Part shown: positions 1-32,000 of the stretch, one piece after another
Layout of the letters: each line of letters opens with the position of its first letter
Numbering within the stretch: the stretch's first letter is position 1
Assembly (NCBI GenBank): GCA_965231145.1
Contig: OZ246420.1
Span: forward strand, 960,001 to 992,000
Length of the DNA stretch: 32,000 bases
Direction of reading: 5' to 3'
From: Candidatus Saccharimonadota bacterium
GTDB taxonomy: Bacteria; Patescibacteriota; Gracilibacteria; Absconditabacterales; Absconditicoccaceae
Translations under genes and position numbers: made by a program
Notes under the pieces: model-generated
Told to the model about the DNA's origin: nothing
The model's database searches: none
What the model saw: the letters and a program-made list of their open reading frames with translations, nothing else

Positions 1-247
1 CAGACCACATTTCGAGTATCGTAATCTGTGATGCCTGAGCAAGATCTTCGACTGTGGGAAATTTCTCCAGCCGAGCTTTGTATTTGGTCTTTACTCTTTC
101 TACCTGTGTTTGCTGCGACATAATCTCCGAAACTAAAATCTTGTAAGGATCGGTTGTCCTACGCCATGGTAAATCACGAGCATTGGTTTCATATCGTGAG
201 AGTATCTTTGTCTGTAGCGCTTTTTTCTTTGTTGCATTGATTATCAT
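1..247 (-). CDS. mutY: A/G-specific adenine glycosylase MutY (HhH-GPD family), N-terminal 82 codons; the gene runs off the window start
   Basis: ATG at 247 on the minus strand. The translation MIINATKKKALQTKILSRYETNARDLPWRRTTDPYKILVSEIMSQQTQVERVKTKYKARLEKFPTVEDLAQASQITILEMWS carries the MutY/Nth N-terminal signature LPWR..DPY..VSEIM.QQTQV..V...Y..F...FPT...LA. It is missing from the ORF track because there is no stop inside the window. Confidence 0.75.
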   Translation of the reverse strand, partial: MIINATKKKALQTKILSRYETNARDLPWRRTTDPYKILVSEIMSQQTQVERVKTKYKARLEKFPTVEDLAQASQITILEMWS

Positions 248-672
248 ATCCTGATAATAGTAAAATACACATGAAGAACAATTTATTTTTATAGTCTATT
301 GTTTTTCTTCGTCCTGCCGGACGGGCGTTACTTTTTAGCATATCCCTAAAACCCCCGTAGTAAATACGGGGAAAAAGGTCTAGCAGATTTTAGCACTACG
401 AGCCTGTGAGTTATTCACATATTGACTACTAAAGCCTTTCGTTCTCACGAACTCAATGCTCTTCGCATGAATCATTATTCACGGACTGGCTAAAGGAGAC
501 GCAGGAAAAATCGGCATGTGAGAAACTTTTACCCCATCTCCGGCAGGAGAAAAGAAAATGCAAAATCCAGAGCAATAATATCATCTTCTGCCTTTATCAG
601 AGCCGTTTTTGCGCTACGCCTTGCATCAAAAAGGCTAATCTGTATAGTGGTGACTACGTTTAGCTTATTACT

Positions 673-1014
673 ATGGTAACTATGGATTTTACAGGAAAGA
701 TCATCTACAAAGGAGCAAAAGAGACTGTTGGACAAAATGGTTTTGAAAAACTTTCAATCGTACTCGAAGAAGTTACAGATAAAGATTATAAATCATCTCT
801 TATGATAGAGTTCTTCAAGGATAAAATTGAACTTGCGGCACCTTTGAAGATGGGAGACACTATTAAAGCGTATGTTAACCCACGCGCAAAAGAATACAAT
901 GGTCGTTGGTATAACAGCGTATCATGCTGGAAGATTGATATGATCTCTCAAGGATCTGGAAAAGCTACAAGTTCTGAAGACTCATATGATGACAATGAAG
1001 ATCTTCCGTTTTAA
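673..1014 (+). CDS. DUF3127-family OB-fold-like protein with an SSB-type acidic C-terminal tip
   Basis: Uninterrupted ORF (alternative ATG at 682). FTGKIIYKG...FEKLSIVLEE...KMGDTIKAYVNPRAKEYNGRWYNSVSCWKID matches my recollection of DUF3127 (..sREYNGRWYt.v.aWk.). The tail ends DSYDDNEDLPF, like the SSB tip DDDIPF. The stop is TAA. Confidence 0.8.
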   Translation: MVTMDFTGKIIYKGAKETVGQNGFEKLSIVLEEVTDKDYKSSLMIEFFKDKIELAAPLKMGDTIKAYVNPRAKEYNGRWYNSVSCWKIDMISQGSGKATSSEDSYDDNEDLPF

Positions 1015-1023
1015 TGGTAGAAC

Positions 1024-2592
1024 GTGAAAACGTTTTATCGTTTGATCGTATCATCCATCTCTATGAAATTACTTAAAGTTTCTTTCCCATACGAAAAGAT
1101 AACGCCACTTGCCATCAAAAGCATCACGGCTGCATATTTTCGCGGACATAAGAATCGCCCTTCTATGCAAGAGGCGTTTCTTTTTTCGCACATACAGAAA
1201 CACGCCGATACAGCCTTTGGAAGTGTGCATGATCTCTCCAGAGTCGACTCTGTTGAAGCTTTTCAAAGAGCAATTCCTCTCCAGCATTATGAAAGCATCT
1301 ATCCGCGGATCGAGCGCTGCCTGCGTGGAGAAAAAGATATACTTGTACGTGGAAAGATAGACCGGTTTGCTACATCATCGGGAACAACAGGGAAAAACAA
1401 GTATATTCCTGTGACGAAAGCTGCATTGAAATATAATCACTATCGTGCTGGAACGGATATGATTATGGCGTATGCAAGGGAAAATCCGACGACGAAAATG
1501 TGGCCTGGACAGGCGCTTGGCATTGGCGGATGATTTTCGTACAACCCATTTACCGGTAAGAAAAACGTTGGTTTCATCTCTGCCATACTGCAGCGCAATA
1601 TGCCACTACTCGTAAGGATGATGAAACAGCCTAAGGCAAATATTTCATACTTGAGTGACTGGCAAAAGAAAGTAGAGAAGATGATCGAGGTCACGAAAGA
1701 GAAAAATATTACCTCAATCTCCTGACAACCATCGCGATGCTCTGCGTATCTTGAGAAGATGCTCGCACATACAAAGAAAAAAAACATATTGGAAGTATGG
1801 CCGAACTTTGAGCTCGTCATACGATGAGGCATGGCAATAGACCTTTACAAGCCTATTTTCGAGCGTCTGCTCCCTTCGGAGCAAGTAAGATATTGCCAAG
1901 TCTACAACGCAAGTGAATGATTTTTTGCAGCCCAGCATGAAAACAATCGTGACGACATGCTTCTGTTTGTTGAGCATGCAGTATTTTATGAGTTTATACC
2001 TTTTGAAAATTACCTTCGCAAGTGCTATGAGACAGCATTGACGATCTATGAAGTAGAAGTAGGAAAGCCGTATGTTATCGTCATTACGAACAATGCTGGC
2101 CTCTGGAGATATGTGCTCGGTGACGTTGTTGAATTTACCGGTACTGAGCCACATACCATTAAAATCACCGGAAGAACGAAATATTACATTGATGTTGCTG
2201 GCGAGTGTACTCCTCTTGAGCCTATTAATGCAGCACTGCGTGAGGCTTCGATACAAACTCAAGGTATCATAAAAGAATATACGGTCGGTCCTGGAAAGCT
2301 TACTGCGCCTGATCAGTGACACTATGAGCTTATTATTGAACGAGAGCAAAAGCCTGCATGCGATGAAAAAGCTTTTGCTACGCTTTTCGATGACCTTCTC
2401 TGTAAAAAATGGTCGTACTATCACGATGAGAGGCACGATACGCACATGTTACAAGTTCCTGTGGCCCATTTTGCTCCTCCTAAGACATTTTATCGCCGGC
2501 TGGAACAAAGAGGGAAGCTTGGAGGCCAGCATAAAGTACCGAAAATCAGCTCAGAAAGGACGATCATAGCGGAGGTATTTCGTCTGCTGTAA
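1024..2592 (+). CDS. GH3-family acyl-acid amido synthetase-like protein (GH3 auxin-responsive promoter family)
   Basis: Track pieces 1024-1533 and 1957-2319 plus the gaps form one frame with 5 in-frame TGA and no TAA/TAG. It ends on TAA at 2590-2592. Motifs: FATSSGTTGKNKYIP, EVWPNFELVIR[TGA]G (family HGG), YNASE[TGA]FFA (family SEGFF) and SIS[TGA]QPS (family SGVPS). Confidence 0.8.
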
Positions 2593-2850: not shown

Positions 2851-3434
2851 TATGCTCTTAAAATTTCTATAGCTCCGTCTTCGCCTATGCGCACAATTTG
2901 CGACGGCTCCCCTGCGCTATCTGCTATGTCGGACGACAGATACGCATCTGCTCATGAGATAATCTGCTCATCTACCACAGCAAATGATGTTGGCGATGGC
3001 TGTCCGCTCAGATTTGCTGACGTCGATACAATCGGCTTTCCATATGCAACAAGCATCTCATGACATCGCTTTGCTCATACATTGTTTTCTCTTTCAGTCA
3101 CAATGCGCACCGCGAGTGTTCCATCGCTATAATATACATTGTCAGCGAGTCACTGTACGCCTGACAAGACGAGCGTTACTGGCTTTGGGGCTGCAGCAAT
3201 ATATGATTTCTGTTCATCAGTTAAAGCGACTCCATATGCTGCGAGCATCTCTTCTGAAGCAAATAATACTACCATACTTTTTTCTTTCGGGCGCTGCTTC
3301 AATGCATAGACTTTTTCTACTGCATCAAAATTTCACGCATCACATCCGATGCCTCGGATAGTATCCGTCGGATACACTATCGTTCATCAGTCAGTAAGCA
3401 CCTGTAACAATCACTCTGTATCAGTTTTCAGCAT
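2850..3434 (-). CDS. tsaC: L-threonylcarbamoyladenylate synthase (TsaC/YrdC family)
   Basis: Found only under table 25: 195 codons from ATG at 3434 to TAA at 2850-2852. Translation: MLKTDTE[G]LLQVLTD[G][G]TIVYPTDTIRGIGCDA[G]NFDAVEKVYALKQRPKEKSMVVLFAS...GKPIVSTSANLSGQPS. These are the YrdC signatures GG.v.yPTDT.yGlGcda, K.R...KP and STSAN.SG. The plus-strand track ORFs 2836-3063 and 2984-3361 are antisense shadows. Confidence 0.85.
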
Positions 3435-3439: not shown

Positions 3440-6244
3440 TTATTTAATGATAAGATTGATAATTTTATCTTGGACAAAGATGATTTTTGCGATTTCCTTT
3501 CCTGCAAGAGACGAAGCAAATCTGTCATCACTCTGTATAAGATTCATGATTTCTTCTTGCGATGTTCATGCATTAATTTCCAATGTTCATTTCATCTTAC
3601 CGTTGATCTGTACTGGCAGATTTATGCTATCTGCTGCGATTTTTGAGGCATCATATTGTGGCCATGCAGAGAAATGAATAGTTGATTCGTTGCCGATTTG
3701 TTCCCATATTTTTTGTGTTACTCTTGTAGCAAATGGTGAAAGCAATTGAAGGAACATGCTGAGCTGTTGTTTGGTAATGGTCTTCTTATCGTAGACCTCA
3801 TTAACAAACACCATGAGTTTTGAAACCGCTGTGTTTCATTTTATCTTTTCTATATCCTCACTTACTCACTTGATCGTCTTATGAAGTATCGGCTCAAGAA
3901 CAGTACTTTCTGATGAAGTATCTAAGAATTGAGTAAGGCGTTCTACTCTCTCTAAGAATTTTTTCACTCCCATCATAGAGCTCACATTCCATACTTTCTC
4001 CTGTTCAATTGGTCACATGAACATGACATATGTTCTGAGCGTATCTGATCCGTGCTCCAGCGCAACTTCACTTGGGTTGATGACATTTCCCCAACGCTTT
4101 GACATTTTACGTCCGTCTGGCCCAAGGATAAATCACTGATGGACAAGCTTTTGAAATGGCTCTGCGCATGAAACATATCCCTGATCAAAGAGGAATTTAT
4201 GGATAAAACGAGAGTACAAGAGATGTCCATACGTATGCTCTTTCCCACCAATATAGAAATCTACAGGCAGCGTCTTGTCTGCAAGTTCTTTGCTGATAAG
4301 TTCTTTCTCGTTCTTCGGATCAATGAAACGCAAGAAGTAGAACGAGCTACACATAAATGTATCGAGCGTATCGCACTCGCGGAGATATGTTTTCCCGTCT
4401 TTTGCTGTATAATGTGGAAATGTTGGATGATCTGCGAGCGGAGACTTCCCTGCTGGCTTATAGTCCTTTACATCTAAAGGAAGAAGTACAGGAAGTTCAT
4501 CTTCAGGAATAAGCTGGGGATTTCCTGCTTCATCGTAATAGACCGGTATTGGAGAGCCCCAGTAACGCTGACGAGAAACAGACCAGTCGCGGAGTTTATA
4601 TGTTACCTTCGACCTTCCAACTCACTGCTCTTCCAGATATTCGGTTATTTTTTTCTTCGCTTCAACATTATCCATGCCATCAAACCTATCTGAATTGATA
4701 AGCTTTCCTGTTCATGTATATGCTTTATTTGCGTCTCTATGTCTTCTAAAGAAAACTAAATTAGAGTTGGCGGCTCCTGGTGTCTTTGAAAGGAAGGCGT
4801 CTACCTCCTCTACTGACACCCATACAAGTGCATGTACATCTGCACCCTCAATCTCTCAGGTATTATCCTGAGATTTTAAGCGATAAACAGCGCAATTTTC
4901 ACAACTATATCTATTGATATCTTTATGTGCTACATAATACTCAGCATGTATTTCTCAAGGAATCATCTCGACAAATTCCACATCTGAATATCCTGTTTCT
5001 TCTAATATCTCTCTTGCTCAGGCTGCTACAATATCCTCTCACTCTTCCACTCCTCACATCACAAACGACTTTCGGTCTTGCGTCTTTCGATCAATACACA
5101 ATACATTCTCCATTTTTTCATCGTAAAGCATCGCCAAGACATTGCGTCTTACACTATTTTGCTTCCCTTCTACCGGAGGATTTCACGAAATATAGTGCAT
5201 CGCTATAACGTCTTTCACTGCAAGATCGTGCTTTTTCGCAAAAGCCCAATCTCTTTCGTCGTGCGCAGGCACACACATGACCGCTCCTGTTGCGTAGTCA
5301 GGAAGCACGTAATCTGCAAACCAGACTGGAACTTGTTCATTGGTCAATGGATGTTTTGCGTAGACTCCTGAGAAAAATCCTGATCTTTCTTGTGCGTCTT
5401 GTTGTCTTTCGAGCGCGGTTTTCTTTCCTGTTACCTTGCGATATTCTACAAGCTCTGATTTCTTTTCAGCAGAAAGTAGTGAGTCCATAAGCTCATTTTC
5501 AGGCGCAAGCACGATAGCTGTTACTCCGTAGATCGTATCTGGTCTTGTCGTAAATACAGTTATTGAGGACTGAGCATTGAGAATTGAGAATTGAATTTCA
5601 GCGCCTTCAGACTTACCGATCCAGTATTTCTGCTGTGTCTTCGTTTCTTCCGGCCAATCGACAAGATCTAAGTCGTTGATAAGTCTTTCTGCGTAGTCGG
5701 TAATTTTGATAAACCACTGCATATGTTTTTTCTGTACGACTTCTGTCCCACAACGCTCACACTTTCCATCAACTACCTGGTCGTTTGCAAGTACCGTCTG
5801 GTCTTGTGGACACCAGTTTACAAAAGCTTCTTTACGATACACAAGTCCTGCTTTAAAAAGCTGCTGAAAAATCCACTGCGTCCATTTGTAGTATTCTGGC
5901 GACGAAGTCGCAAATTCGCGGTCCCAGTCGTAGCTCCAGTCCATGAGTCTACACTGTTCAATGAAGCTCGCAATATTTTCTTTTGTTACATCAACTGCAG
6001 GTTTTCCAACTTTCATAGCGTATCCTTCTGTTGGCAATCCAAAAGAGTCCCAACCGATAGGATTGAGCACTGAAAATCCATTCATGCGCTTGTAGCGAGC
6101 GATGATATCATTCGCCGTATATGGTAATGCATGTCCAACATGAAGCCCAGCCCCACTTGGATACGGAAACATCGCAAGCGAATAGAATATTTTATCTTTC
6201 GCTGCTTTTGTCAGATCAACTTTGAAAGGATTGTCTTTGTTCAT
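3440..6244 (-). CDS. leuS: Leucyl-tRNA synthetase with an embedded Nudix-like domain
   Basis: Track pieces 5183-6244, 4133-4354 and 3587-3814 plus the gaps form one frame of 2805 nt, with 14 in-frame TGA and no TAA/TAG by my reading. Motifs: HIGH as [24 protein letters not shown], [G][31 protein letters not shown] as [10 protein letters not shown], and C-terminal VQINGKMK[G]TLEI. TAA at 3440-3442 lies 5 nt before the tsaC ATG. Confidence 0.92.
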
Positions 6245-8586: not shown

Positions 8587-9870
8587 TTATCTTTTACCAT
8601 ATTGTGCTTTGCTTCCGAGCGCTCTTTCTATTCTCAGGAGCTGATTGTACTTCGCGATTCTATCGGTTCTGCTGAGCGAACCGGTCTTAATGTAACCAGC
8701 ATTTGTGGCTACAGCCAGATCGGCAATAAATGTGTCCTCTGTCTCTCCCGATCTATGTGAGATAATGCATGAAAGATTGTTTTTCTGCGCCAAAGCGATC
8801 GTATCGAGCGTCTCTGAAACTGAGCCGATCTGGTTGAGCTTAATAAGAATAGCATTTGAAAGATGTTGGTCAATTCCCATTTGGAGTCTTTTTACATTTG
8901 TCACATAGAGGTCATCTCCTACGGTGCGAACGCTCTTCTCGAGTCCTTTTTCTGCAAGAAGCTTTTCAAAATGTGCCCATCCTGCAAAGTCATCTTCTGC
9001 AAATCCGTCTTCAATACTCACGATCGGATAACGAGCGATAAGATCCATATAATACTCAGCCATCTCTTCTGAAGTCAAACTTTTTCCTTCTCCCGAAATT
9101 TCATATTTCCCTTCTTTGAAAAACTCTGACGATGCAACATCGAGACCGATCTTGATTTGCTCTGTCGTATATCCCGCATCACCAATAGCTTTTACGACTG
9201 TGTCTAATGCGATCGTATTGCTTGAAAGATTTGGAGCGTATCCTCCTTCGTCTCCTACACCTGTTGCAAGACCCTGTGACTTAAGGATCTTCTTGAGCGT
9301 ATGAAATACTTCTGCACCCATGCGAAGCGCCTCGCTAAATGAAGGAGCTCCCTGCGGGATGATCATAAATTCCTGAAAGTCTAAGCCGTTATCTGCATGC
9401 TCTCCTCCATTGATAATATTCATGTATGGAATCGGCAATACATATCCTTGTCCTTCTGAAAGGTACTCGTGAATAGCTTTTCCAGCCTCTTTTGCACACG
9501 CATCGATATATGCCATAGAAACAGCAAGGATTGCATTTGCACCAAGGTTCGATTTGTTTTCTGTAGCATCGAGCGTGAGCAATGCACTGTCGTGCTCGCG
9601 GAATGATGAAAATTCTTTTCCGACAATCGCCGCGCTGATCGTTGTATTAATATTATTCACAGCTTTTGTTGTACCCTTTCCAAGATATCTTGCTTTATCT
9701 CCATCGCGAAGTTCAAGAGCCTCGTGTGTTCCAGTCGACGCACCCGATGGCACAAGCCCTCTTCCTGTATGTCCTGACGCAAGCGTCACATTAGCTTCTA
9801 CCGTAGGGTTTCCTCTACTATCCATAATTTCTAGTCCTCGTACGTGTGTTATTTTTGTCATCGTTTTCAT
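8587..9870 (-). CDS. eno: Enolase (phosphopyruvate hydratase)
   Basis: Intact 427-aa ORF with no TGA. Motifs: [60 protein letters not shown]. The stop is TAA. Confidence 0.95.
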
Positions 9871-9961: not shown

Positions 9962-9988
9962 AAAAAAAGCCCCCGGAAACCCGGGGGC
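9962..9988 (-). terminator. Rho-independent terminator of ppdK
   Basis: Hairpin GCCCCCGG-AAAC-CCGGGGGC at 9969-9988, with an A-run at 9962-9968 (a T-run on the minus strand), 30 nt after the ppdK TAA. Its stem is identical to that of the icd-like terminator at 26047-26066. Confidence 0.7.
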
Positions 9989-19326: not shown

Positions 19327-19656
19327 CTATTTCTGACGATCAATTTTCTTTACAGCACTAGCAAGCGTTCCCCATGTTTCACGCATAGCCCCAAGGATAT
19401 CTTTTCCCTTACTAGTAAGCGCATAATATTTTCTTGGAGGTCACTGTACTGACTCCACCCACGAATAGGTCACAAGCTTGTCGTCCTTCAAACGCGAGAG
19501 TAATGGATAAAGTGTTCCTTCCACGATAAGTAGACTACTCTCTTTGAGCGTCGCAAGAATATCTGATGCATACACTTCTCCCGCAGAGATGATAGCAAGT
19601 ATCAGATACTCGAGCACTCATTTTTTCATCTGCGTGCTTATTTTTTCGTATTCCAT
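19327..19656 (-). CDS. PadR-family transcriptional regulator
   Basis: Visible only under table 25 (110 codons, 2 TGA): MEYEKISTQMKK[G]VLEYLILAIISAGEVYASDILATLKE...VEGTLYPLLSRLKDDKLVTYSWVESVQ[G]PPRKYYALTSKGKD. These are the canonical PadR motifs GtlYp.L.rLe..Gl and RkyY.lT..G. The stop is TAG. Confidence 0.85.
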
Positions 19657-19995
19657 GTTTATACACTTACTTACTAAAATAATGTTAAATTCGAAATGCT
19701 GAATTCTAAATATAGTATGGTTTCAATTAATGATACCCTCCTTATTATATTTAAAATTTAAAATCTAGAATTTCGAATTATTATAGTACTATGTAACACA
19801 AGGTACTATAAGAACAAATATTATTTTTTCAAGAGAAAATGAAAAAATCACTTTGTAGTAGTACCGTTGCACGATAATATCTGGCTTATTTAAGCCGCTC
19901 TTATTGCATCCACTCTTTTTACGATTATAAGCGCGAACGTTATCTCGTTGGTCATTCACAATTCAAAAATAATCACAATTTAAAAACTTGAAACA

Positions 19996-20814: not shown

Positions 20815-20903
20815 CCCATCGATCAACGAGATACACAAAACAAAAACAAAAGTCTTCTGTTCCCAGGAGACTCCTTAGCGATTTAGCTTCTTATATATGT
20901 TCT

Positions 20904-21563
20904 ATGAAAAAATATATATTTGTACTTATTGCCTGCATCTCTTTCTCTTTAGCGTGATGCAGTATGCAAAGTGACACGGCAGAGGTGGTTGGCAAGAAAC
21001 GATATAAGCCCACTCACCCTCTCAGTGATGGTATGTGAGGAGATAGTTCATGAAGACTCTATGGAGAGTTTTCACGTTATAGCTCGCAAGAGTTATGAGT
21101 TTCTTTTGAGTACATTTCCGATGCATCAGTGAAATCAACTATTGATAGCGAAACAGTTATTGTTCGTAGCGGCAATACGCTCTCGACAAAAGATCAGTTT
21201 GGATCTCGTATTCTCATGCTCGTCTTTTCCGGAGCAAATATATGATGAGATACGGGAACTCTTGAAAAGCATTTTCGTCTTGCTGAGTATCCTTTGTGCA
21301 GGCTCACTGCTACTTCACCTATCACGAAACAAGAATGAACAAAAGCTAATAATAATTTCACATATTACGAATTACTCTTTTCCTGAACAGATTTTCCTCA
21401 AGACGGAAGCTCTTTTTGTCCTTATCAGAATCGCAGTAGCATAGTACCATTACTTATCACAGACAAAAAAATACCTAATAAAATAGTTATGACCTTTCTG
21501 TGTGAAGGTTGCGGCCCTGATCCAGACTTATCATGGATAGAAACTTTACAGATAGTAAAATAA
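20904..21563 (+). CDS. Lipoprotein of unknown function, readable only with TGA=Gly
   Basis: 219 codons free of TAA/TAG, with 8 in-frame TGA. The N-terminus MKKYIFVLIACISFSLA[TGA]CS gives a textbook lipobox L-A-G-C. The stop is TAA at 21561-21563. Track ORF 21142-21444 is in a different frame. Confidence 0.65.
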
Positions 21564-21914: not shown

Positions 21915-22103
21915 CTACGTGAATGACATACGAAAAAGGACAGGAATAACATTCCTACCGCAGGCAGGTCCTGTCCCCACCAAAATGGATCTAAAATATT
22001 ACGTCCCTACAACCCAACATATTAAACGGACGCATTATTGATGCGTCCCTACAAACGATTCTACGTGAATTATATACGCAAAAGGACAGGAATAATCCTG
22101 TCC
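21915..22103. repeat. Cluster of REP-like palindromic elements (two hairpin types, each followed by CTAC)
   Basis: A 35-nt direct repeat occurs at 21915-21949 and 22061-22095 (4 mismatches). Hairpin GGACAGGA..TCCTGTCC occurs at 21938-21976 and 22084-22103. Hairpin GGACGCAT-TATTG-ATGCGTCC at 22028-22048 is followed by CTACAA. The GGACGCA/TGCGTCC palindrome recurs at 31543-31849 next to and inside the RAYT-like gene. Confidence 0.6.
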
Positions 22104-23670: not shown

Positions 23671-23705
23671 AGATAGCGATAGTAATTAATAATAAACTCT
23701 ATTTC

Positions 23706-24584
23706 TTATAATGCTACTACTCTTAATAAAACCTCTTTCCAATTTGATGACATCCTCATATGTGAGATTTGGACATGAGAATGTTTTTTTAATAACACTT
23801 CTAGCTTCTTTATAAAGTTCTTAGGTTTTGAATTAGCATGTTTTAAAAGCACGACAATTACTATAGCGTATGAAAAGAAGGAATCAGCATCCTGAAAAAA
23901 ACTAGTGTAATTATTATTGCTTACTTTTAATTTTCACGTCATTGTTTTGTTCCAAAGCCTATCATGATGAGCACAAATATTTCTCATATGAGCTAAACAT
24001 CGCATTCGATTTTCATAGACGAGAAAGTATAATTGCGACACACTACTAATCTGCATCTGATATTGTGGATTGAGGCATTTGTAAATCGACACAGCCTCAC
24101 CAAATGACGCTATCTGTAGAATAATCCAAATAGGTGGATATGGCGGCGCGTTATAAGTTTTGTAATAATGCCTAACGGTATAATGATCTTTATTTTTTTC
24201 TACGATATCTTTTATTTTTTTCTCTAAACGAGGGAAGTCTTTAAAGAGTTGTGAATTAAGGTGATAAAAAGATCCATCTAATTCTCAGATTTCACGTATT
24301 AATGCGGATTTAAAAGAATTTTCTATGATTTCAAGATACTCTACACACAAAGATCTTAATTTTTTATCAAACTCATAAAGCTCTACGAGGTGATCAAAAG
24401 TAACATCTTTTTGAAAACTATCATCGCTGTTTTGATAAGCTTTTGCATAAATAGAAATACGATAGTATCCCACATTTTTCAAATACCACACTACTTTTTT
24501 AGTCTTGGATATTATCAATCACCTACTATGAAATAGGCTTATTTGCTGGTCAACTGTAAGTATTGGCTTTATATAGTCAGTCAT
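23706..24584 (-). CDS. Abi_2 family (AbiD/AbiF-like) abortive-infection-type protein
   Basis: 293 codons in one frame with 3 TGA, from ATG at 24584 to TAA at 23706-23708. Motifs: LKNVGYYRISIY, LYEFDKKLRSL, and the family signature MRNICAHHDRLWN. Confidence 0.8.
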
Positions 24585-24766
24585 ATCTTTATATTTTCCT
24601 TTTTAAAAACTTGCAATATGAATAATATTCATTAATATAGTTACATCAATATCTGCCAGCCTCTGCTTAACGGCATGCCAACCGGGCAGATTTTTGTTAT
24701 ATAAATTTTTACGTTATCACTTATTCTACCCATTCCCATTAAAATAACAATCTCACACTACAGTTC

Positions 24767-24794
24767 TTGACATTTATTGGAAGAAGATTATCAT
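24767..24794 (+). promoter_or_regulatory. Cassette promoter 1: TTGACA-N16-TATCAT
   Basis: TTGACA at 24767-24772 and TATCAT at 24789-24794, then the leader TCATCAAAAAAC, with ATG at 24824. Confidence 0.5.
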
Positions 24795-24823
24795 ATCGGT
24801 TCATCAAAAAACATAACTAATTT

Positions 24824-26002
24824 ATGAAAAGAAAATTATTTGTACCCCAAACCATTACGGTTCCTACTGTAGCAGGAGATGGCATTGGCAAAGAAATTAT
24901 GCCCGCTATTATCGCCATACATATGGCAGCAAGCTCCCCCATCCACTTTGCAACCGGCTATATGCTCGGCCAGCAGTCTCTGGATATGGGCGGTATGCTT
25001 ATACCAAAGGAACTGACAGATGCCTTTACGAAGCATAAAATTCTGTTCAAAGGCCCTCTGGCAACACCTAAAGGGAAAGGCCATAAAAGCATCAACCTGA
25101 CTCTCAGGGACATGTTCAACCTGCATACCAACTTCCGGCCAGTTACTTCACTACCCGGTATCACTACCAGGTTCAGCCAACTAACAGGCGCCATTATGGA
25201 CCTTATCCCCTGGCGTAATCAGAGCGTGGACATCGTAGTATTCCGCGAGAATACGGAAGATCTTTACAAGAACACTGAAGAGTTTTCCGGCGACAATGAA
25301 GATGCTACCATCACATTTAAGCTTTCGAAGGCGGCTGCGCGCAAGATACTTACTTCAGCAGCAGAATATGCTATAAAGGCCGGGCGCAAAAAGATAACCT
25401 TCATCCACAAGTCAAACATCATAAAGGCATATGGCCTCTATATAGATGTGATGACCAAAGAGATAGCGCCTCAATACCCTGACCTACAGTTCGAGGAATA
25501 TGTAGTGGATGCTTACTGTGAGAAAGTGGTAATGGATCCTACCAGGTTCGATATTGTTGTTGCCCCGAACCTTTTTGGCGACATCGTGTCTGACCTGCAT
25601 TTGGGCCTCATCGGCGGTCTTGGCTTTGGCCCTGGCGCCAACCTCGGCGACGAATACGCTATGTTCGAGGCCATACATGGCTCTGCTGACGGCACAGATG
25701 GCATAGCCGGCAAAGGCATTGCAAACCCTACCGGCATGCTCCTTTCCAGCGTACTTATGCTGGAACATGTGGGCGACTACATCACAGCAGAACGCATAAA
25801 AAGTGCGTTGTTCTATGTGCTGGAGCACAAGAAAGACGCCTGTACTCCGGACTGTCTGGGCGATGTGGACAAAGCCGTAAAAGCCGCTCATCCCGGCACT
25901 ACTGCCACGATGGAAGCGGCCATCATCGCTGCTCTCGCAGATACCCACCGCACCTTCAACCAGGAGTGGCTGGAAGCAAGCGGCGCTGCAGTGACGGCAT
26001 AA
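24824..26002 (+). CDS. icd: Isocitrate dehydrogenase-like protein (isocitrate/isopropylmalate dehydrogenase family)
   Basis: Intact 392-aa ORF. IDH-type substrate motif KSINLTLRDMFNLHTNFRP (cf. E. coli SLNVALRQELDLYICLRP). Other motifs: VVFRENTEDLY, IHKSNIIK, NLFGDIVSD, GANLGDEYAMFEAIHGSA...AGKGIANP. The stop is TAA and there is no TGA. It looks GC-richer than the backbone. Confidence 0.85.
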   Translation: MKRKLFVPQTITVPTVAGDGIGKEIMPAIIAIHMAASSPIHFATGYMLGQQSLDMGGMLIPKELTDAFTKHKILFKGPLATPKGKGHKSINLTLRDMFNLHTNFRPVTSLPGITTRFSQLTGAIMDLIPWRNQSVDIVVFRENTEDLYKNTEEFSGDNEDATITFKLSKAAARKILTSAAEYAIKAGRKKITFIHKSNIIKAYGLYIDVMTKEIAPQYPDLQFEEYVVDAYCEKVVMDPTRFDIVVAPNLFGDIVSDLHLGLIGGLGFGPGANLGDEYAMFEAIHGSADGTDGIAGKGIANPTGMLLSSVLMLEHVGDYITAERIKSALFYVLEHKKDACTPDCLGDVDKAVKAAHPGTTATMEAAIIAALADTHRTFNQEWLEASGAAVTA

Positions 26003-26046
26003 CTTTTTGCCATTGGTACCTATAATATCCTATTATGCCCCCGGAA

Positions 26047-26071
26047 ATCCGGGGGCTTTTTCTTATGTTAC
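26047..26071 (+). terminator. Rho-independent terminator of the icd-like gene
   Basis: GCCCCCGG-AAAT-CCGGGGGC at 26047-26066, followed by TTTTT. Confidence 0.75.
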
Positions 26072-26254
26072 AATTACTTTAGTTCTCGGATAGAATACAC
26101 AGACACAACCAAAAACTATCATTATGCAAGCAGCCCCAATACCTACCTGCTACCTTATATCCAATCTCCTTTGTGAATTAAGGTACCAAGCGACCAACTT
26201 ATGGGCATAGCCCACCCACAGTAAAGCCTGTATTGTACGTGCCTTTTCTTATGG

Positions 26255-26283
26255 CTGACATTTCAGCACAAATTTCTTACAAT
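26255..26283 (+). promoter_or_regulatory. Cassette promoter 2: cTGACA-N17-TACAAT
   Basis: CTGACA at 26255-26260 and TACAAT at 26278-26283, then the leader TCAAACAAAA at 26292-26301. Confidence 0.45.
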
Positions 26284-26317
26284 TCTTCTCGTCAAACAAA
26301 ATGATCACCCATAAAAT

Positions 26318-27127
26318 ATGCTATGTATGGAAATGAAAATCAAAATAACGGGGAAACCACTTGTACTTAACACATTAGACAATCTCCAGCCAAACAAAAA
26401 GGTATGGTTGTCGCATGAGTCTTTGCTCTTTACCAAAACAAACGATTTCTACATCTATAAGAAAGCCCAATTTGTAGGCCGGGCATCTCCGGATAATGGC
26501 TATATTGTTCCTGTCGAGCTTGACGAAGAAGGATATCTGAACGTATGCTTTAAAGAAATACGCTTTGCCTTTAACATGAGCGATGACAAAGAGCTCAAAG
26601 ATGTTGATATCAATGAATATCTCCATCTTAGCAATGTAGAAATGGAAAAACAAAAAGACGACAGGGATTGGATTAGAAGATCAATGATAGACGACTTGTT
26701 CCAGTCTTTCAGTCTTTGCCTTCTCAACGATCTTTGTCCCATGGAGAACTTACTTTGTATCCATGAGACATTGTTGGATCGCATAGTGAGTTGTGAAGAT
26801 AAGGATTTATTAGAAGACCTTGTCGAATTCTGCTCACGAAATTTCAAGGAAGAAAGCCTTATTGCATCATCAGATGAACAAGCTGAAGCTTTGGAACAAA
26901 ACCTGGAATTGCTCACTGCCAAATTACACAAAAGAGTCGATGAAGTCCAAAATTTATTAGACTCTTTAAAAGTCGTCGCCACAGAACGTGTCGCCCTTTT
27001 GCCTCAGGAAGAGACAGAAGAGAGCATGCAAAAAGATCTCGATACAGCAATAGCACAAGAAGACTACAACAAAGCTGTTGATATAAGAAATAACATGCTG
27101 GGAAAGGGGTTTAAGCCTAACAGTTGA
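26318..27127 (+). CDS. Hypothetical protein (about 266-269 aa) with a C-terminal UVR-like motif; stops on TGA
   Basis: Intact ORF with possible starts at 26318, 26327 and 26333. The C-terminus MQKDLDTAIAQEDYNKAVDIRNNM resembles the UvrB/UvrC/McsA UVR motif (M..A....dfE.AA.lRD.i). The stop is TGA at 27125-27127, 20 nt before the terminator. Confidence 0.7.
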   Translation: MLCMEMKIKITGKPLVLNTLDNLQPNKKVWLSHESLLFTKTNDFYIYKKAQFVGRASPDNGYIVPVELDEEGYLNVCFKEIRFAFNMSDDKELKDVDINEYLHLSNVEMEKQKDDRDWIRRSMIDDLFQSFSLCLLNDLCPMENLLCIHETLLDRIVSCEDKDLLEDLVEFCSRNFKEESLIASSDEQAEALEQNLELLTAKLHKRVDEVQNLLDSLKVVATERVALLPQEETEESMQKDLDTAIAQEDYNKAVDIRNNMLGKGFKPNS

Positions 27128-27146
27128 AATAGAACAAGTTATTACA

Positions 27147-27170
27147 AGCCCCGTTATTCGGGGTTTTTCT
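27147..27170 (+). terminator. Rho-independent terminator of cassette 2
   Basis: CCCCG-TTATT-CGGGG at 27149-27163 with extending A-T/G-U pairs and a T-run, running into TTTTTCTTTTA and the next -35. Confidence 0.7.
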
Positions 27171-27174
27171 TTTA

Positions 27175-27203
27175 TTGACATTTCCTAATATAAAAGTTAT
27201 CAT
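27175..27203 (+). promoter_or_regulatory. Cassette promoter 3: TTGACA-N17-TATCAT
   Basis: TTGACA at 27175-27180 and TATCAT at 27198-27203, then the leader TCAAACAAAAAGACAAACCT, with ATG at 27227. Confidence 0.5.
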
Positions 27204-27226
27204 TGCTCAAACAAAAAGACAAACCT

Positions 27227-28030
27227 ATGGAAAAAAATGGTATATTAGCTCGACCTTTTATAAAGGATATTTCTAAGGGAAAGGTATTTTACTGCAATCC
27301 CGACATCTCTGTAGTAGTATTCCCTGAGGATAAATTAGTGTATTTGTGCCCTTATGGAGAAGCTTCACAAACATACAATAAGGAACTAAACCTTATTTGT
27401 CCTATCCAAAAAATTGATGGTAGCGTTATTCTCATGCCAGATACTGTGTATGTGCATACCGCATATCATAAAAGCCAAAAGAAAATCATGGAAAGCATTA
27501 TTGATTGGTATCAGCTACCTACTCACATCACTATCACCGGTAATATACCGTCACCAATAGACTTACCTTATGAAGCAATGGACGTACTCTCTCTCGAGAG
27601 CTATCTAACAGATTGGCTGACAATTTGTGAAGACAATAAAAGAAAACCTGTAAAAGTAGAAGAAGTTCTTACTATTAAAAAAGTTTTTCTGAAAAAGATC
27701 GAGACTGAAACGAACAAACAAACACTCATCGAAACATGGAACAATGTAGAAGTATCTCTAAACGAATTCAATGACGAATCCACGCAAGCGCTACTACATG
27801 AGATACACCAATCACTATCAAACAGGCTTTTGACTCTCGGTAGTAGAAAGGCATCTAGAAACGCAAAAGATAAAATTCCTTTAGAAGAATCCTCTCTATC
27901 TGATCTAAAGACGAATTTTAATGCCTACACTAAAGAAGAATTTGACGCTTTTCTAAGCGGATTAGATGGAGACGCAAGCGAAACTGCATTAGCAATAGCC
28001 CAATACATACGAGACCATCGCCCAAATTAG
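27227..28030 (+). CDS. Hypothetical protein (267 aa)
   Basis: Intact ORF. The track starts it at TTG 27203, but ATG 27227 fits the leader spacing of the other cassettes. The stop is TAG. I recognise no family. Confidence 0.7.
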   Translation: MEKNGILARPFIKDISKGKVFYCNPDISVVVFPEDKLVYLCPYGEASQTYNKELNLICPIQKIDGSVILMPDTVYVHTAYHKSQKKIMESIIDWYQLPTHITITGNIPSPIDLPYEAMDVLSLESYLTDWLTICEDNKRKPVKVEEVLTIKKVFLKKIETETNKQTLIETWNNVEVSLNEFNDESTQALLHEIHQSLSNRLLTLGSRKASRNAKDKIPLEESSLSDLKTNFNAYTKEEFDAFLSGLDGDASETALAIAQYIRDHRPN

Positions 28031-28060
28031 ATCAACAAAATTTTATTATCACAACATCTT

Positions 28061-28085
28061 AAAACCGGTCATGTACCGGTTTTTC
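28061..28085 (+). terminator. Rho-independent terminator of cassette 3
   Basis: AAAACCGGT-CATGT-ACCGGTTTT at 28061-28083, then TTTTTCTTATTC. Confidence 0.7.
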
Positions 28086-28091
28086 TTATTC

Positions 28092-28119
28092 TTGACATCT
28101 TTTTTTAAAAAATTATCAT
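28092..28119 (+). promoter_or_regulatory. Cassette promoter 4: TTGACA-N16-TATCAT
   Basis: TTGACA at 28092-28097 and TATCAT at 28114-28119, then the leader TCAAACAAAACCAATCGT, with ATG at 28145. Confidence 0.5.
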
Positions 28120-28144
28120 TTCCGGGTCAAACAAAACCAATCGT

Positions 28145-28714
28145 ATGAGCAAAACACTATTTAACATATTTCCTCTAGGAGGAAATGGCTCTGTGAGCTT
28201 TATATGCGCTGATGCAGACGCATCCGCAGACGTGATAGACATTGCCAATAGCAACGGTCAATCACCTTTTACTATATCCATGATAGGATGTCAACCCATG
28301 TGGTATGTCATACCGATATGTGCTTGTAACCCTATCATAGCAGTTACACATGAATACGCACTAGAAACCAACCAGGTTGGTTCTCTCTTTGCTCTGGTTG
28401 AATCTCTGTTGTCAGCGGGAGAACAACTGTATAACAAAAAACAGCGTTGCTTTGATGATGCTGTTCCCGGACATCGTGTTCTGATAGAAAATGGTAAGAG
28501 CAAAATCATCCGGAGCGAGGCGAGATTCACAAAAAATATAGTGGACGAATGTCTGTCTATAAAAAGCGTTCGAACATTCTATGAGAAACTACAGACGCAG
28601 GTATTAACTTCTGCAGATATAGATGCATTTGTACATACGTTTGTAGATTGTGGAGAAAAGGTAACAGGTCGTCTCATGGAGCAATCTGGCAATGCTGTAG
28701 TTGCGCAGAACTAA
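28145..28714 (+). CDS. Hypothetical protein (189 aa)
   Basis: Intact ORF with a TAA stop. I recognise no family (MSKTLFNIFPLGGNGSVSFICADADASADVID...). Confidence 0.7.
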   Translation: MSKTLFNIFPLGGNGSVSFICADADASADVIDIANSNGQSPFTISMIGCQPMWYVIPICACNPIIAVTHEYALETNQVGSLFALVESLLSAGEQLYNKKQRCFDDAVPGHRVLIENGKSKIIRSEARFTKNIVDECLSIKSVRTFYEKLQTQVLTSADIDAFVHTFVDCGEKVTGRLMEQSGNAVVAQN

Positions 28715-28732
28715 GAAAATATATGTCTATCT

Positions 28733-28760
28733 AAAAGCCCCGACATCTCGGGGCTTTTTT
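28733..28760. terminator. Bidirectional terminator shared by cassette 4 and mutS
   Basis: AAAA-GCCCCG-ACATCT-CGGGGC-TTTTTTTT. The hairpin ends 6 nt before the mutS TAA (28761-28763), separated only by the T-run. Confidence 0.75.
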
Positions 28761-31448
28761 TTATTTATCTATCTCGTCTTTCAACTTATTGAGCAGCAGC
28801 AATGCTTGCATCGGAGTCATGTTATTCGCATCGATCGAATCAATGATTCTCTTCATCTTATCGTACTTTGCTTTCGTCTCGATCGCTTCAAAGTCTACTC
28901 ATCAAAATAATCCTTCGACTTTTAATTTTGCACTCTGATTTTTGGATTCTGAATTTTCGAGCGAAGCAAGATATCTCTTCGCCTGATCAGTGATCACCGT
29001 CGGGATTCATGCGATCTTAGCTACATCGAGTCCATAACTCTTACTCGCTCCTCCAGCAACAATTTTTTTCATAAAGACAACTTCTTTGTCTGTTTCATAT
29101 ACAGAGACAGAATAATTTTTCACTCACGGAAGTTGTCACTCTAAAGAAATCAACTCATGATAGTGTGTTGCAAACAAGGTCTTTGCACCTGTCTTTTCTG
29201 CGATATACTGGACGATAGCCTGTGCGAGCGCAAGTCCGTCATACGTTGAGGTTCCACGCCCAAGCTCATCTAAAATAATAAATGATTTTGATGTCGCATT
29301 GTGCAAGATATTTGCCATCTCGATCATCTCTGTCATAAACGTCGATTGATTTTTCGCGATCACGTCTCCACTTCCCACGCGAGCAAAGAGTCCATCTACG
29401 ACTGGCACAGATGCTTCGGTCGCAGGGACATAGAGACCGCATTGAGCAAGAAGAATGATAAGAGCGTTTTGCCTCAGATAGGTCGACTTACCTCACATAT
29501 TCGGTCATGTGATAATATGCAGACTGCCAGTGTCACCCGATCCTATTTGCAGATCATTTGCTATGAACTGCTCATGCACCGGCAGATATTCTTCAATAAC
29601 TGCATGACGTCCTCCGACAATACGTAGTTCTCCATTTGTCATAAGCTTTGGCCTCGTCCATCTTTTCTCTGCGACAAACAACGCATGTGTGACATACAGA
29701 TCGAGCCACGCAATCCCATCGGCGAGCTGTGTCAGCACTTTTGCTGCGTCAATAATTTTTTCTTTTGCGATAAGAAGCTGTGCCTGCTCTTTTGTCTTGA
29801 GCTGAAATTGTGCAGCGAGGATCTTATGCTGCAGCTCTTCGAGATATGGCGTGATATAACGCTCACCCGTTTTGAGTGTCTGGCGACGGATGAAATCAAA
29901 CTTCGGATCGCCCTTCACACATCCCGCTTCAAAAGCCGCTATATCCTTCGGAGTCACTTCAAGAAAATATCACTGATTGCTCACGTACTTCACTTTCACG
30001 TTGGCAACATTTGTATGAGTCACCACTTCCTGCTGATACGCGATCAACATCTCATCACTATGATACGCTATCTTTCTCAGCTCATCGATCTCCGGATCAA
30101 ACCCATCTCTAATATAATCTATTTCATCATTCAATCCTTCTTCCTTCAAAAGTTGATACAAATATTCATATAACTCTTCTCCTTTCTTCAATACTTCGTC
30201 TTCGACTCAGAGCACTTTCAGTGCTGATTTTATCCCTTGCCCCTTATCCCTTGTCAATGATTCCTCCAACCTTAACTCCGCTCTTTGCTCTCTGCTCTCT
30301 CAGTTTGATGGCGAATTAAATATAAGCGACAAAGCATATCTGAGCTTTCCTAGCGTTGTCGGATTGTGTTTCTTGTAGATAATAAGCGACATGATTTTTG
30401 GGATATCAAGCATGTGACCGAGCGTCTGTGCGATACTTTGTGCATCATCGCGATGAGAGATATAGTAGTCGACATGCTGTTGACGCTCGGAGATGACAGA
30501 AAGATTTTTTGTCGGACGTGTCAGCACTTCGCGAAGAAGCCTTGCGCCAAGTGATGTTTTTGTCTGATCGATAACGCCGAGCAATGAGTATTTTTTTGCA
30601 CCATCGTAGTGCGAGGCGAAAAGCTCGAGGTTTTTTATCGTCACGTTATCGAGCAGCACCGCGTCGGTTGAGTTATCGTACGAGACAGAGATAATAGTAT
30701 GGATGCTTCATTTTTGTACGCCGCGAAGATAGTGGACGAGTAAGCTGAATGCATATTTCCTACCGTCCTCAAGCGCCTTTCCAAACGAATTCAATGACTG
30801 CACACCAAAGACAGACTGCAGCAATAAGTCTGCATCTGATGGCTGATCGTATGTCGAAACAAGGCAGTGGGAAAAATTGTGCATATGATTTTCGAGTTCT
30901 CACTTCTGGGGAAAATCAATATCGACGACGATCTCCGCAGGAGACAGATTCAGTAAAAATTTTAAGAGTTCATCGATAGATGAAAAACTTTGCGTCCAGT
31001 ACTGCCCGACCGAAAAGTCACCCCACGCGAGGTGATAGTTTTGGAGATCTCCTCCGGAGTATGCAACCGCCGTGATGTATGAAAATTGTTTCTGTGACTC
31101 CTGAATATACGTTCCCGGCGTGATAACTGCCGTCACCTCACGCTCAACAATCTGCCCCGGCTTTGGCTCACTCACCTGCTCACCTATAGCAACTTTGTAG
31201 CCATGCGCCACCAGTTTCGCGATATACTTCTCTGCACTATGATATGGCAATCCCGCCATAGGAACTGGATTTGCACTATTTTTATCACGAGACGTGAGCG
31301 TCAGATCTAAGAGCTTTGAACAGATCTTTGCATCTTCATAAAACGTCTCATAAAAATCTCCCATACGAAAAAAAAGAATGCAGTCTTTATACTGCGTCTT
31401 CATGTCCATATACTGCTTTTGTGCCGGCGTCAGCTTCTCCGTATTCAT
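28761..31448 (-). CDS. mutS: DNA mismatch repair protein MutS
   Basis: Five track pieces (30900-31448, 30300-30659, 29970-30191, 29505-29957, 29136-29408) plus the gaps form one frame of 2688 nt, with 12 TGA and no TAA/TAG. N-terminus: [36 protein letters not shown]. Walker A: IIT[G]PNM[G]GKSTYLRQ. Also [14 protein letters not shown] and FATHYHEL. The stop is TAA. Confidence 0.92.
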
Positions 31449-31514
31449 GCCCTGATTGTACGGAAATAGCGGGTAAGCTCAATATTAAAAAATCCAATGA
31501 AATTATGCATATAA

Positions 31515-31530
31515 GCGCATTATAATGCGC
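31515..31530. repeat. Perfect 16-bp palindrome GCGCATTATAATGCGC
   Basis: It lies just downstream (on the minus strand) of the RAYT-like stop. It may be a terminator or a REP-type hairpin. Confidence 0.3.
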
Positions 31531-31535
31531 CTTCT

Positions 31536-32000
31536 TTAGAGAGGACGCAAAATATTGCGTCCGTACAATTCTCGCCATTTCATCGGATTTTCCTGGATAT
31601 ATTTTTTTATACGATCATATTCGATTTCATTTCTAATAATATGGTCGTGGTAACGACCATGCCGGGCGAATGAAATATGATTATTTTTCGCGTATTTCAT
31701 TACACCAATTTTAAACCCACGAATAATTGCTCACAACGATCATGATGCACATTCATATTTATTTTTTTCTCGGTATTGTACGGACGCATTATCATGCGTC
31801 CTTTTTATTTTATTTATTTTTTTATCATTGGACGCAAAATATTGCGTCCCCACATCGCACCTATTTACTATCAATATCCCATGGACGTGATTGGGCATAC
31901 AAATAAATTCATCTATTTCAACATACGGATAATGGGTCGGAATATCCTTTCGACACTTCCAAGCCACGCGACCCAATTCATTCAACCTCATCACCCCATT
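31536..32000 (-). CDS. IS200/IS605-like HUH (Y1) transposase family protein, REP-associated tyrosine transposase (RAYT)-like, COG1943-type; the 5' end is outside the window
   Basis: One frame with 2 TGA: ..NGVMRLNELGRVAWKCRKDIPTHYPYVEIDEFICMPNHVHGILIV...CAS[G]SL[G]AIIRGFKIGVMKYAKNN..FARHGRYHDHIIRNEIEYDRIKKYIQENPMKW. It has the HUH motif (HVH), GSLGAIIRGFK, and YDHIIR...Y(I)..NP. The stop is TAA at 31536-31538. Confidence 0.8.
31543..31562. repeat. REP-like palindrome GGACGCAA-AATA-TTGCGTCC followed by GTACAAT
   Basis: It lies inside the last codons of the RAYT-like CDS, where it is read as GRNILRP. Confidence 0.6.
31782..31801. repeat. REP-like palindrome GGACGCAT-TATC-ATGCGTCC, preceded by GTAC (ATTGTAC) on the plus strand
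   Basis: It lies inside the RAYT-like CDS, where it is read as RTHDNAS. On the minus strand it is followed by GTACAAT, as copy 31543-31562 is on the plus strand. Confidence 0.6.
31830..31849. repeat. REP-like palindrome GGACGCAA-AATA-TTGCGTCC (20 nt identical to 31543-31562)
   Basis: It lies inside the RAYT-like CDS, where it is read as GTQYFAS. Confidence 0.6.

Follow-up and report, generated by a model that had tools for sequence, protein, structure and literature searches.

The 32-kb stretch of DNA analysed here (the window; 41% GC) holds 21 complete genes, called as open reading frames with only TAA and TAG as stops, which occupy 82% of it, and more than 82% when the two genes cut by its ends are added (Table 1). 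Among them are the genes for leucyl-tRNA synthetase (LeuRS), MutS, a GH3-family protein, a TsaC/YrdC/Sua5-domain protein (TsaC), pyruvate kinase (PK), enolase and pyruvate phosphate dikinase (PPDK). A 100% identical copy of the window is present in the Logan assemblies ERR4405439 and ERR4405440, where the public table-11 gene calls on the matching contigs are fragments, and the exact protein of one hypothetical gene (28145..28714) was found in a public protein collection. Judged by its homologues, the DNA is probably chromosomal, its source being an uncultured relative of SR1/Absconditabacteria (Patescibacteria): the nearest named homologues of MutS, LeuRS and GH3 belong to candidate division SR1, Absconditabacterales and Absconditicoccaceae (about 45–50% identity), so that the best-homologue names agree with membership of the Absconditabacteria/SR1 clade, and closer relatives (70–77% identity) are metagenome-assembled genomes (MAGs) with the same recoding. 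We consider it very probable that the window uses the variant code of the Absconditabacteria, in which UGA means glycine, only UAA and UAG end translation, and CGA and CGG mean tryptophan in most genes, here called the backbone genes.

In-frame TGA codons are the most conspicuous sign of this code. The TGA coordinates quoted in an earlier, sequence-only reading of the window (for MutS, TsaC, LeuRS, the Nudix box and a lipobox) proved exact when checked on the sequence: TGA fills both x positions of the MutS motif IIT-x-PNM-x-GKST, stands as a tandem TGATGA in TsaC, and occurs in LeuRS at 4622–4624, within EEQ-x-VGRSK, and at 5054–5056, in the Nudix box that lies inside the LeuRS gene. That reading had also claimed at least 12 genes broken only at TGA, and we indeed count 12 complete genes with 68 in-frame TGA codons and no TAA or TAG, to which the partial RAYT-like gene adds two further TGA; Pfam domains span the TGA positions uninterrupted. 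Past the first TGA of each gene we found no TAA or TAG in 4,081 codons, and since the off-frame rate of TAA plus TAG in the same genes is 3.4%, the probability of such a run arising by chance is about 1e-60. The further claim that genes end only on TAA or TAG likewise holds, with 18 TAA, three TAG and no TGA stops among the 21 complete genes. TGA makes up 22% of the glycine codons in the genes that use it. Nine genes are free of it, namely PK, enolase, PPDK, the isocitrate/isopropylmalate dehydrogenase-family gene (IDH) and five hypotheticals; measured against the 22% share, the absence has a probability of about 1e-8 in PPDK, 3e-5 in enolase, 3e-4 in IDH and 7e-4 in PK. The PK orthologue at L023, one of the related loci used for comparison (L004, L023 and others), is 77% identical and has one TGA, which faces a GGA of the window.

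Table 1. Features of the window, with in-frame TGA, CGA and CGG codons, and related intervals. Positions refer to the window unless a related locus is named.
Feature	Position	Strand	Remarks
MutY-like adenine glycosylase (HhH-GPD), N-terminal part	1..247	-	Runs off the left end; CGA 194-196, CGG 71-73; full gene from L015, same contig
DUF3127 gene, 113 aa	673..1014	+	Pfam; no TGA; stop TAA
GH3-family gene, 509 aa	1063..2592	+	Pfam GH3 N, M and C domains; 5 TGA, 3 CGA, 3 CGG
GH3 key codons	TGA 1723-1725, 1825-1827, 1918-1920, 2317-2319; CGA 1735-1737; CGG 1363-1365, 2497-2499	+	
TsaC/YrdC/Sua5-domain gene, 194 aa	2850..3434	-	Pfam PF01300; 7 TGA, including the tandem 3384-3389; 2 CGA: 3354-3356, 3066-3068
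Leucyl-tRNA synthetase (LeuRS), 934 aa	3440..6244	-	Pfam; 14 TGA, 2 CGA
NUDIX domain inserted in LeuRS past the editing domain	approx. 4790-5149	-	Pfam
Hypothetical, 159 aa	6364..6843	-	No TGA; 2 CGA, 1 CGG; weak L023 orthologue, 29% identity
Pyruvate kinase (PK), 477 aa	7076..8509	-	Pfam PK and PK_C; no TGA, no CGA/CGG
Enolase, 427 aa	8587..9870	-	Pfam; no TGA; 1 CGA
Pyruvate phosphate dikinase (PPDK), 910 aa	10020..12752	-	Pfam; GC 48%; 0 TGA in 74 Gly codons; CGG 10842-10844, 10893-10895
Hypothetical upstream of PPDK (hyp12954), 215 aa	12954..13601	-	No TGA; 1 CGA
AAA_14/DUF4143 ATPase, 425 aa	13811..15088	+	Pfam; 3 TGA, 1 CGA
ABC exporter (transmembrane and nucleotide-binding domains), 590 aa	15618..17390	-	Pfam; 3 TGA, 3 CGA, 5 CGG
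PspC-domain membrane protein, 474 aa	17876..19300	-	Pfam; 5 TGA, 1 CGA, 1 CGG
PadR regulator, 109 aa	19327..19656	-	Pfam; 2 TGA
Predicted lipoprotein (hyp19984), 272 aa	19996..20814	+	GC 48%; 0 TGA in 25 Gly codons; 1 CGA, 1 CGG
Lipoprotein, 219 aa	20904..21563	+	8 TGA, including lipobox L-A-[TGA]-C at 20955-20957
DUF2779 protein, 515 aa	22123..23670	-	Pfam; 4 TGA, 1 CGG
Abi_2 abortive-infection-like gene (Abi2), 292 aa	23706..24584	-	Pfam; GC 31%; 3 TGA; CGA 24006-24008, 24000-24002
Isocitrate/isopropylmalate dehydrogenase-family gene (IDH), 392 aa	24824..26002	+	Pfam; GC 50%; no TGA; CGG 25136-25138
Hypothetical (hyp26315), 288 aa	26327..27193	+	2 TGA close to the C-terminus
Hypothetical, 267 aa	27227..28030	+	No TGA; 2 CGA
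Hypothetical, 189 aa	28145..28714	+	Open reading frame; no TGA
MutS, 895 aa	28761..31448	-	Pfam domains I-V; 12 TGA, including P-loop 29505-29507 and 29493-29495; no CGA/CGG
RAYT/IS200-like tyrosine transposase, C-terminal part	31536..32000	-	Runs off the right end; 2 TGA, 4 CGA/CGG; full gene from L012
PPDK-region orthologues	L004 20934-22604; L023 6001-8724		
Blocks missing in L004	approx. 23700-28750, 15600-19700, 20900-21560		

Comparison with homologues strongly supports glycine as the meaning of TGA. Most of the lineage's proteins in public databases were translated by table 4, which writes TGA as W and CGA/CGG as R, and the others are table-11 fragments; translation by table 4 therefore gives rise to artificial columns of mixed G/W and W/R. 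Such homologues show G/W mixtures, without F or Y, at the TGA columns of the window, the same mixture at its GGN columns, and never G at its TGG columns. At the codon level, an alignment of MutS with seven recoded relatives contained many exchanges between TGA and GGN and none between TGA and TGG, and two standard-code Clostridiales outgroups have GGN at the MutS TGA columns. Over all orthologous gene pairs, we counted about 85 columns in which TGA faces GGN and none in which it faces TGG (for example, five TGA-GGN pairs in the AAA_14 gene against its L023 and L004 orthologues, five in the PspC gene against L023, and four in DUF2779 against L004, at 75% identity).

The same assignment emerged from homologues with a standard code and from solved structures. 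For LeuRS, we used 43 homologues, most of them from Patescibacteria with the standard code, that lack W at the mixed columns, and obtained summed column log-odds of +18.9 bits for G, −11.5 for the next-best residue, A, and −24.7 for W; G occupied TGA columns 704 and 744 in 42 of the 43 and column 397 in 39 of 39, and the LeuRS of T. thermophilus has Gly at the TGA sites 541, 704 and 886. For GH3, a set of 47 bacterial homologues without W at mixed G/W columns, mostly from standard-code Bacteroidota, had G in 46–47 of 47 at four of the five TGA columns. E. coli MutS, in its solved structure, has Gly at five of the TGA positions, both P-loop sites included, both PadR sites are Gly in all four of the solved PadR proteins shown, and codon 22 of the Abi_2-like gene (Abi2), a TGA, is G in five of five standard-code plasmid homologues. 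Reading TGA as G and not as W also raised the Pfam scores of all families tested, for a combined gain of about 41 bits: MutS_V +11.9 (264.0 against 252.1), MutS_IV +5.3, TsaC +8.2, PadR +3.6 (67.3 against 63.7), GH3 +2.0 and +3.7, and DUF2779 +3.6. For TsaC, the best score, 132.4 bits, came from reading TGA as G and CGA as W; changing CGA to R lowered it to 126.0, and reading both codons as W gave 124.2. The sequence-only reading had placed every TGA that it listed on an invariant glycine, which is correct for the MutS P-loop, PadR, LeuRS and the Nudix box and too sweeping elsewhere: at the LALAR-x-LL site of the ABC exporter, the solved ABC transporters that we compared have Ala, the tandem TGA of TsaC faces E-R in E. 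coli YrdC and G-E in a Sua5, and the ASE-x site of GH3 is Gly in 47 of 47 bacterial members and Cys in plant GH3. Lipoboxes follow the rule [LVI][ASTVI][GAS]C, and since we found no homologues of the lipobox gene, the glycine reading of its L-A-[TGA]-C rests on this rule. As far as comparative data can reach, the assignment of TGA to glycine is thus settled, and these comparisons exclude both tryptophan and stop.

A second departure from the standard code concerns CGA and CGG. The sequence-only reading had called translation table 25 the key to the window; its glycine reassignment stands, and table 25 alone would nonetheless mistranslate the window, because the CGA and CGG codons of the backbone genes occupy columns conserved as Trp or as aromatic residues, exchange with TGG and score better in Pfam as W. 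We therefore regard table 25 as incomplete here and read the code as table 25 plus CGA/CGG = Trp in the backbone genes. These are minority codons: the 21 complete genes contain 24 CGA and 17 CGG (41 in 8,752 codons, or 27 and 19 per 10,000), and TGG is the main Trp codon (85 against 41). All six CGA/CGG codons of GH3 fall on W or aromatic columns (CGA225, W in 47 of 47; CGG101 and CGG479, each W in 44 of 47; CGG82, Y/W; CGA427, F), and W at these codons raises the GH3 Pfam scores by 8.5 and 5.3 bits. In the MutY-like gene, aligned to solved structures, CGA 194–196 faces the W in the 'vldWyd' segment of E. coli MutY, and CGG 71–73 faces F; a second CGA of this gene faces W/F, and its HhH-GPD domain scores 60.6 bits with W against 55.1 with R. 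In TsaC, CGA 3354–3356 corresponds to the aromatic position that E. coli YrdC and Sua5 conserve in the motif PTxxV[F/Y]G, and CGA193 of Abi2 is W in six of six standard-code plasmid homologues.

Orthologous codons support this assignment. In the backbone genes, 22 pairings of CGA/CGG were with TGG and one was with an Arg codon; eight of the 22 are TGG-CGG columns of LeuRS between the window and L023, two come from AAA_14 (L023 and L004), four from the PspC gene (L023) and four from DUF2779 (L004). In the L023 LeuRS, CGG accounts for 8–9 of roughly 18 Trp codons, and at LeuRS columns where standard-code bacteria have W in about 95% of cases, 17–59 of 72 table-4-translated relatives show 'R'. 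Pfam scores rise with W at CGA/CGG for GH3, TsaC, Abi2, the MutY-like gene and DUF559, and marginally for AAA_14 (+0.4 bits); for the RAYT-like gene, only a W reading of these codons gives a Y1_Tnp match, and at 16.9 bits this is weaker than the cut-off requires. CGG taken by itself gives a mixed result, Trp or aromatic in GH3, the MutY-like gene and the LeuRS exchanges, and Arg in PPDK and IDH. We also considered C-to-U editing of CGA/CGG and ruled it out: editing would turn CGA into UGA, that is glycine, yet the CGA columns are Trp.

The meanings of TGA and of backbone CGA/CGG, the restriction of stops to TAA and TAG, and the phylogenetic neighbourhood can all be read directly from these comparisons. 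As for the machinery behind them, published work on the lineage suggests that UGA would be read by a tRNA-Gly with anticodon UCA, expected to show G1:C72, C2:G71, G3:C70 and U73, that release factor RF2 (prfB) would have been lost, and that CGA and CGG would be read by tRNA(UCG) and tRNA(CCG) that have acquired tryptophan identity, with G73, no A20 and no counterpart of the Arg type. Several observations weigh against the code that we propose. ARAGORN detected no tRNA gene in the window, in about 48 kb of the 50-kb contig, or at nine related loci. Codon 803 of LeuRS, a TGA (3836–3838, minus strand), sits on a column with F in 90, Y in 15 and L in 14 of 120 homologues and with neither G nor W; the motif is K-[F/Y/L]-NTA(V/I)S, in which glycine would be a radical change, and the TGA is the same in two other assemblies. 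It is also important to point out that the comparison set is partly non-independent, as some of the sequences without W are NCBI table-25 translations of relatives, with G at their own TGA; MutS sequences without W at mixed columns are of this kind, and we dropped them as independent evidence. The Abi2 CGA195 column reads R/K/K/G/T/R in the six plasmid homologues, that is, mostly R or K. Finally, the code is uneven across genes: PPDK, IDH, the hypothetical gene upstream of PPDK (hyp12954) and a predicted lipoprotein gene (hyp19984) contain no TGA and have CGA/CGG at Arg positions. All 139 family members have Arg at the column of PPDK CGG637 (10842–10844), IDH CGG105 (25136–25138) is the invariant Arg of 'N-x-R-P' in all three of the solved IDHs shown, and Pfam favours R over W in both of these TGA-free genes, with losses under W of 6.7 bits for PPDK and 4.6 bits for IDH.

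By these comparisons, the four genes appear to evolve as if under the standard code, which is unexplained. Against its L023 and L004 orthologues, PPDK pairs CGA/CGG with Arg codons six times, otherwise with Lys or Thr, and never with TGG; together with hyp12954 and hyp19984, the three genomes (those of the window, L004 and L023) give eight pairings with Arg codons and none with TGG, compared with one and 22 in the backbone. One of the eight comes from the hyp12954 orthologue in L023 (51% identity; no TGG pair), and another from the hyp19984 orthologue in L004, which is also free of TGA. When the PPDK genes of the window and L023 are aligned, Gly is shared at 69 columns, with 40 codon changes and never a change to TGA; Trp is shared at six columns, always as TGG; and CGA/CGG is involved at five columns, facing Arg codons at four of them. 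The CGA/CGG codons that fall on conserved Arg do so at other sites in each genome (637 in the window, 144 and 843 in L023, 236 in L004). Of the 33 Gly codons in IDH, 27 are GGC and none is TGA. Where the window's PPDK has its TAA stop, L023 (interval 8722–8751) has a TGA, followed nine codons on by TAG and then by a terminator hairpin; read as glycine, this TGA gives a nine-residue tail, and by the standard code it is the stop. In the window, PPDK and IDH share the same G+C-rich hairpin on their 3' side (GCCCCCGG-loop-CCGGGGGC, then a run of T; 9964–9988 and 26037–26061). Two simple accounts of PPDK were ruled out. Because the gene is syntenic and about 70% identical across the three recoded genomes, and nothing outside the clade exceeds 46% identity (the best non-clade representative among 1.84 billion proteins), it is not a recent import by horizontal transfer; a scan of metagenomes returned one clade member, and the other hits were standard-code sequences of at most 47% identity. 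Nor is it a decaying pseudogene, its reading frame being intact in all three genomes. At the 59 PPDK columns that are at least 95% conserved, the window has only two lineage-specific departures, one of which is the CGG, and no further trace of decay was seen in the gene.

How these genes came to differ is a matter on which we can offer only tentative readings. It is possible, although we lean against it, that a few conserved chromosomal genes have been kept for a long time in a standard-code dialect within genomes that have reassigned three codons; the dialect would cover PPDK with its upstream open reading frame, the hyp19984 lipoprotein gene and, in this genome, IDH, with TGG as the sole Trp codon, no TGA for Gly, and CGA/CGG exchanging silently with Arg codons even where the arginine is invariant. 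If this is true, decoding of CGA/CGG (and of UGA) would be ambiguous or conditional, or the dialect messages would be read by a different tRNA pool; alternatively, selection might keep these genes portable to and from standard-code partners such as hosts or prey. A further candidate is that the new codons, being poorly read, are selected against while a residual Arg reading persists. As a rival to a uniform code, we weighed gene-dependent or ambiguous decoding of CGA/CGG, and perhaps of TGA, under which PPDK, IDH, hyp12954 and hyp19984 would be standard-compatible. Possible reasons include coexisting Arg- and Trp-type tRNAs, exchange with or expression in a standard-code background, and new codons whose reading is too inefficient for genes with very high expression. 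We hold this rival to be rather unlikely, and yet evidence for it comes from the eight-to-none pairing with Arg codons in PPDK, hyp12954 and hyp19984 (one to 22 in the backbone), from the different conserved Arg sites that carry CGA/CGG in each PPDK, and from the 40 Gly codon changes in PPDK without a single TGA alongside a TGA at the place of the window's TAA in L023; TGA-free, code-11-compatible phages, the closest precedent, have also been reported for these hosts (PMC10746230). Set against it, ambiguous reading would be harmful to proteins such as the L023 LeuRS, with its 8–9 CGG-encoded tryptophans, and the case draws on four genes in three genomes, two of the genes contributing one codon pair each.

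The remaining rivals would apply one simpler table to all genes. Plain table 25, with TGA as Gly and CGA/CGG as Arg throughout, is the official NCBI table for the clade, and it would sit well with the CGG codons on invariant Arg in PPDK and IDH and with the mostly R/K column of Abi2 CGA195. It would also force Arg onto columns that are W in 44–47 of 47 GH3 homologues and onto the conserved W of MutY and Abi_2, it runs counter to the 22 backbone pairings with TGG against one with Arg codons, and it lowers the Pfam score of seven backbone families (six by at least 3.3 bits, AAA_14 by 0.4), so that we judge it very improbable. Tryptophan at TGA, as in table 4 and Mycoplasma, is how public databases translate the relatives, and it would turn the change at LeuRS codon 803 into a conservative one; the Gly found in standard-code homologues of the MutS P-loop, PadR and GH3, the absence of any TGA-TGG pair, the −24.7 bits for W in LeuRS and the lower Pfam scores with W in all families tested leave this reading with hardly any credibility. 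Least credible of all is a standard code in which the TGA codons reflect pseudogenes, sequencing errors, selenocysteine or programmed read-through. Table-11 gene callers do fragment these genes, as such a view would have it, and against it stand the 4,081 codons without TAA or TAG, the Pfam domains that continue across the TGAs, and the recurrence of the same pattern in independent relatives from other samples; selenocysteine, moreover, could hardly occur at as many as 68 sites, and the residue that these face is Gly and not Cys.

The code that we propose for the window, with UGA as glycine and backbone CGA/CGG as tryptophan, is best placed among codes already described, and the recoding as such is known biology. 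UGA = Gly has been known from SR1/Gracilibacteria since 2013 (Campbell et al., 2013; Rinke et al., 2013; both as cited in PMC8629427), table 25 was the subject of further work (Hanke et al., 2014; PMC4032931), and in 2021 Codetta predicted an Absconditabacteria code with UGA = Gly and both CGA and CGG = Trp (Shulgina and Eddy, 2021, eLife; PMC8629427). The window resembles table 25 in having UGA as Gly, UAA and UAG as sole stops, and SR1/Absconditabacterales as its nearest named homologues, and differs from it in that table 25 keeps CGA/CGG as Arg, with all other 61 codons standard, whereas the backbone genes appear to use both as Trp. It shows signs of all three reassignments of the Absconditabacteria code, with the mixed result for CGG described above, and its CGA and CGG frequencies per 10,000 codons (27 and 19) come close to the 30 and 24 of the most advanced genome in PMC8629427. 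Unlike that code as described there, the window has a GC content of 41%, above the 26–38% quoted for clades with reassigned CGA/CGG, TGG is still its main Trp codon (85 against 41), and PPDK and IDH have CGA/CGG on invariant Arg; we found no mention of such per-gene heterogeneity in the passages of PMC8629427 consulted. With table 4, used by Mycoplasmatales/Entomoplasmatales and some insect endosymbionts, the window shares UGA as a sense codon, a small genome and an expected loss of RF2, but UGA is Trp there and Gly here, and the TGA codons of the window as a set do not fall on Trp or aromatic columns. Phages that are compatible with code 11 and have Gracilibacteria/Absconditabacteria as predicted hosts (mBio, 2023; PMC10746230) are similar in that their genes work in a code-25 host without in-frame TGA, as would PPDK, IDH, PK and enolase; they differ in being phage genomes of which only TGA was examined, whereas the genes described here are chromosomal, syntenic in three genomes and Arg-like at CGA/CGG.

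Annotation is directly affected by the choice of table. Table 11 yields fragments, table 4 puts Trp at Gly sites, and table 25 puts Arg at about one third of the Trp sites and would mistranslate the majority of the 41 CGA/CGG codons that the complete genes contain; domain searches, structure predictions and phylogenies inherit the errors of such translations. Only one bacterial clade is known to have both a stop-to-sense and a sense-to-sense reassignment, and with the window it gains a member of 41% GC. The per-gene dialect is the part that deserves follow-up: if true, the heterogeneity offers a testable handle on whether reassigned codons pass through ambiguity or persist in it, and it would bear on the extent to which an altered code cuts a genome off from exchanging genes with others.

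Gene order differs among the relatives. In L004 (12605–22604), DUF2779 comes immediately after MutS, the 19984-type lipoprotein gene, AAA_14 and PPDK come next, and there is no counterpart of three blocks of the window, namely Abi_2-IDH-three-hypotheticals, ABC-PspC-PadR and the TGA-rich lipoprotein gene; as they are missing from a syntenic region, these blocks represent insertions or losses. In L023, PadR and PspC adjoin AAA_14. Two further MAG loci, L008 and L009, are labelled 'uncultured Candidatus Peribacteria bacterium' and have MutS genes with 23–28 in-frame TGA facing GGN of relatives; these MAGs are thus recoded, and either the taxonomic label or the code expected from it is doubtful. 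The insertion in LeuRS has parallels: among its 120 best homologues, many of them from Patescibacteria, inserts often contain NUDIX, alpha/beta hydrolase, DUF559, PDDEXK_3 or HAD domains. The RAYT-like protein gave no match in a search against solved structures. REP-like palindromes (GGACGCAAAATATTGCGTCC) occur in and beside its gene (31543–31567 and 31830–31854), with a degenerate copy at 21987–22011, and one of them encodes the C-terminal 'GRNILRP' of the protein. A near-identical pair of hairpins (15590–15617 and 17775–17802) brackets the ABC exporter gene.

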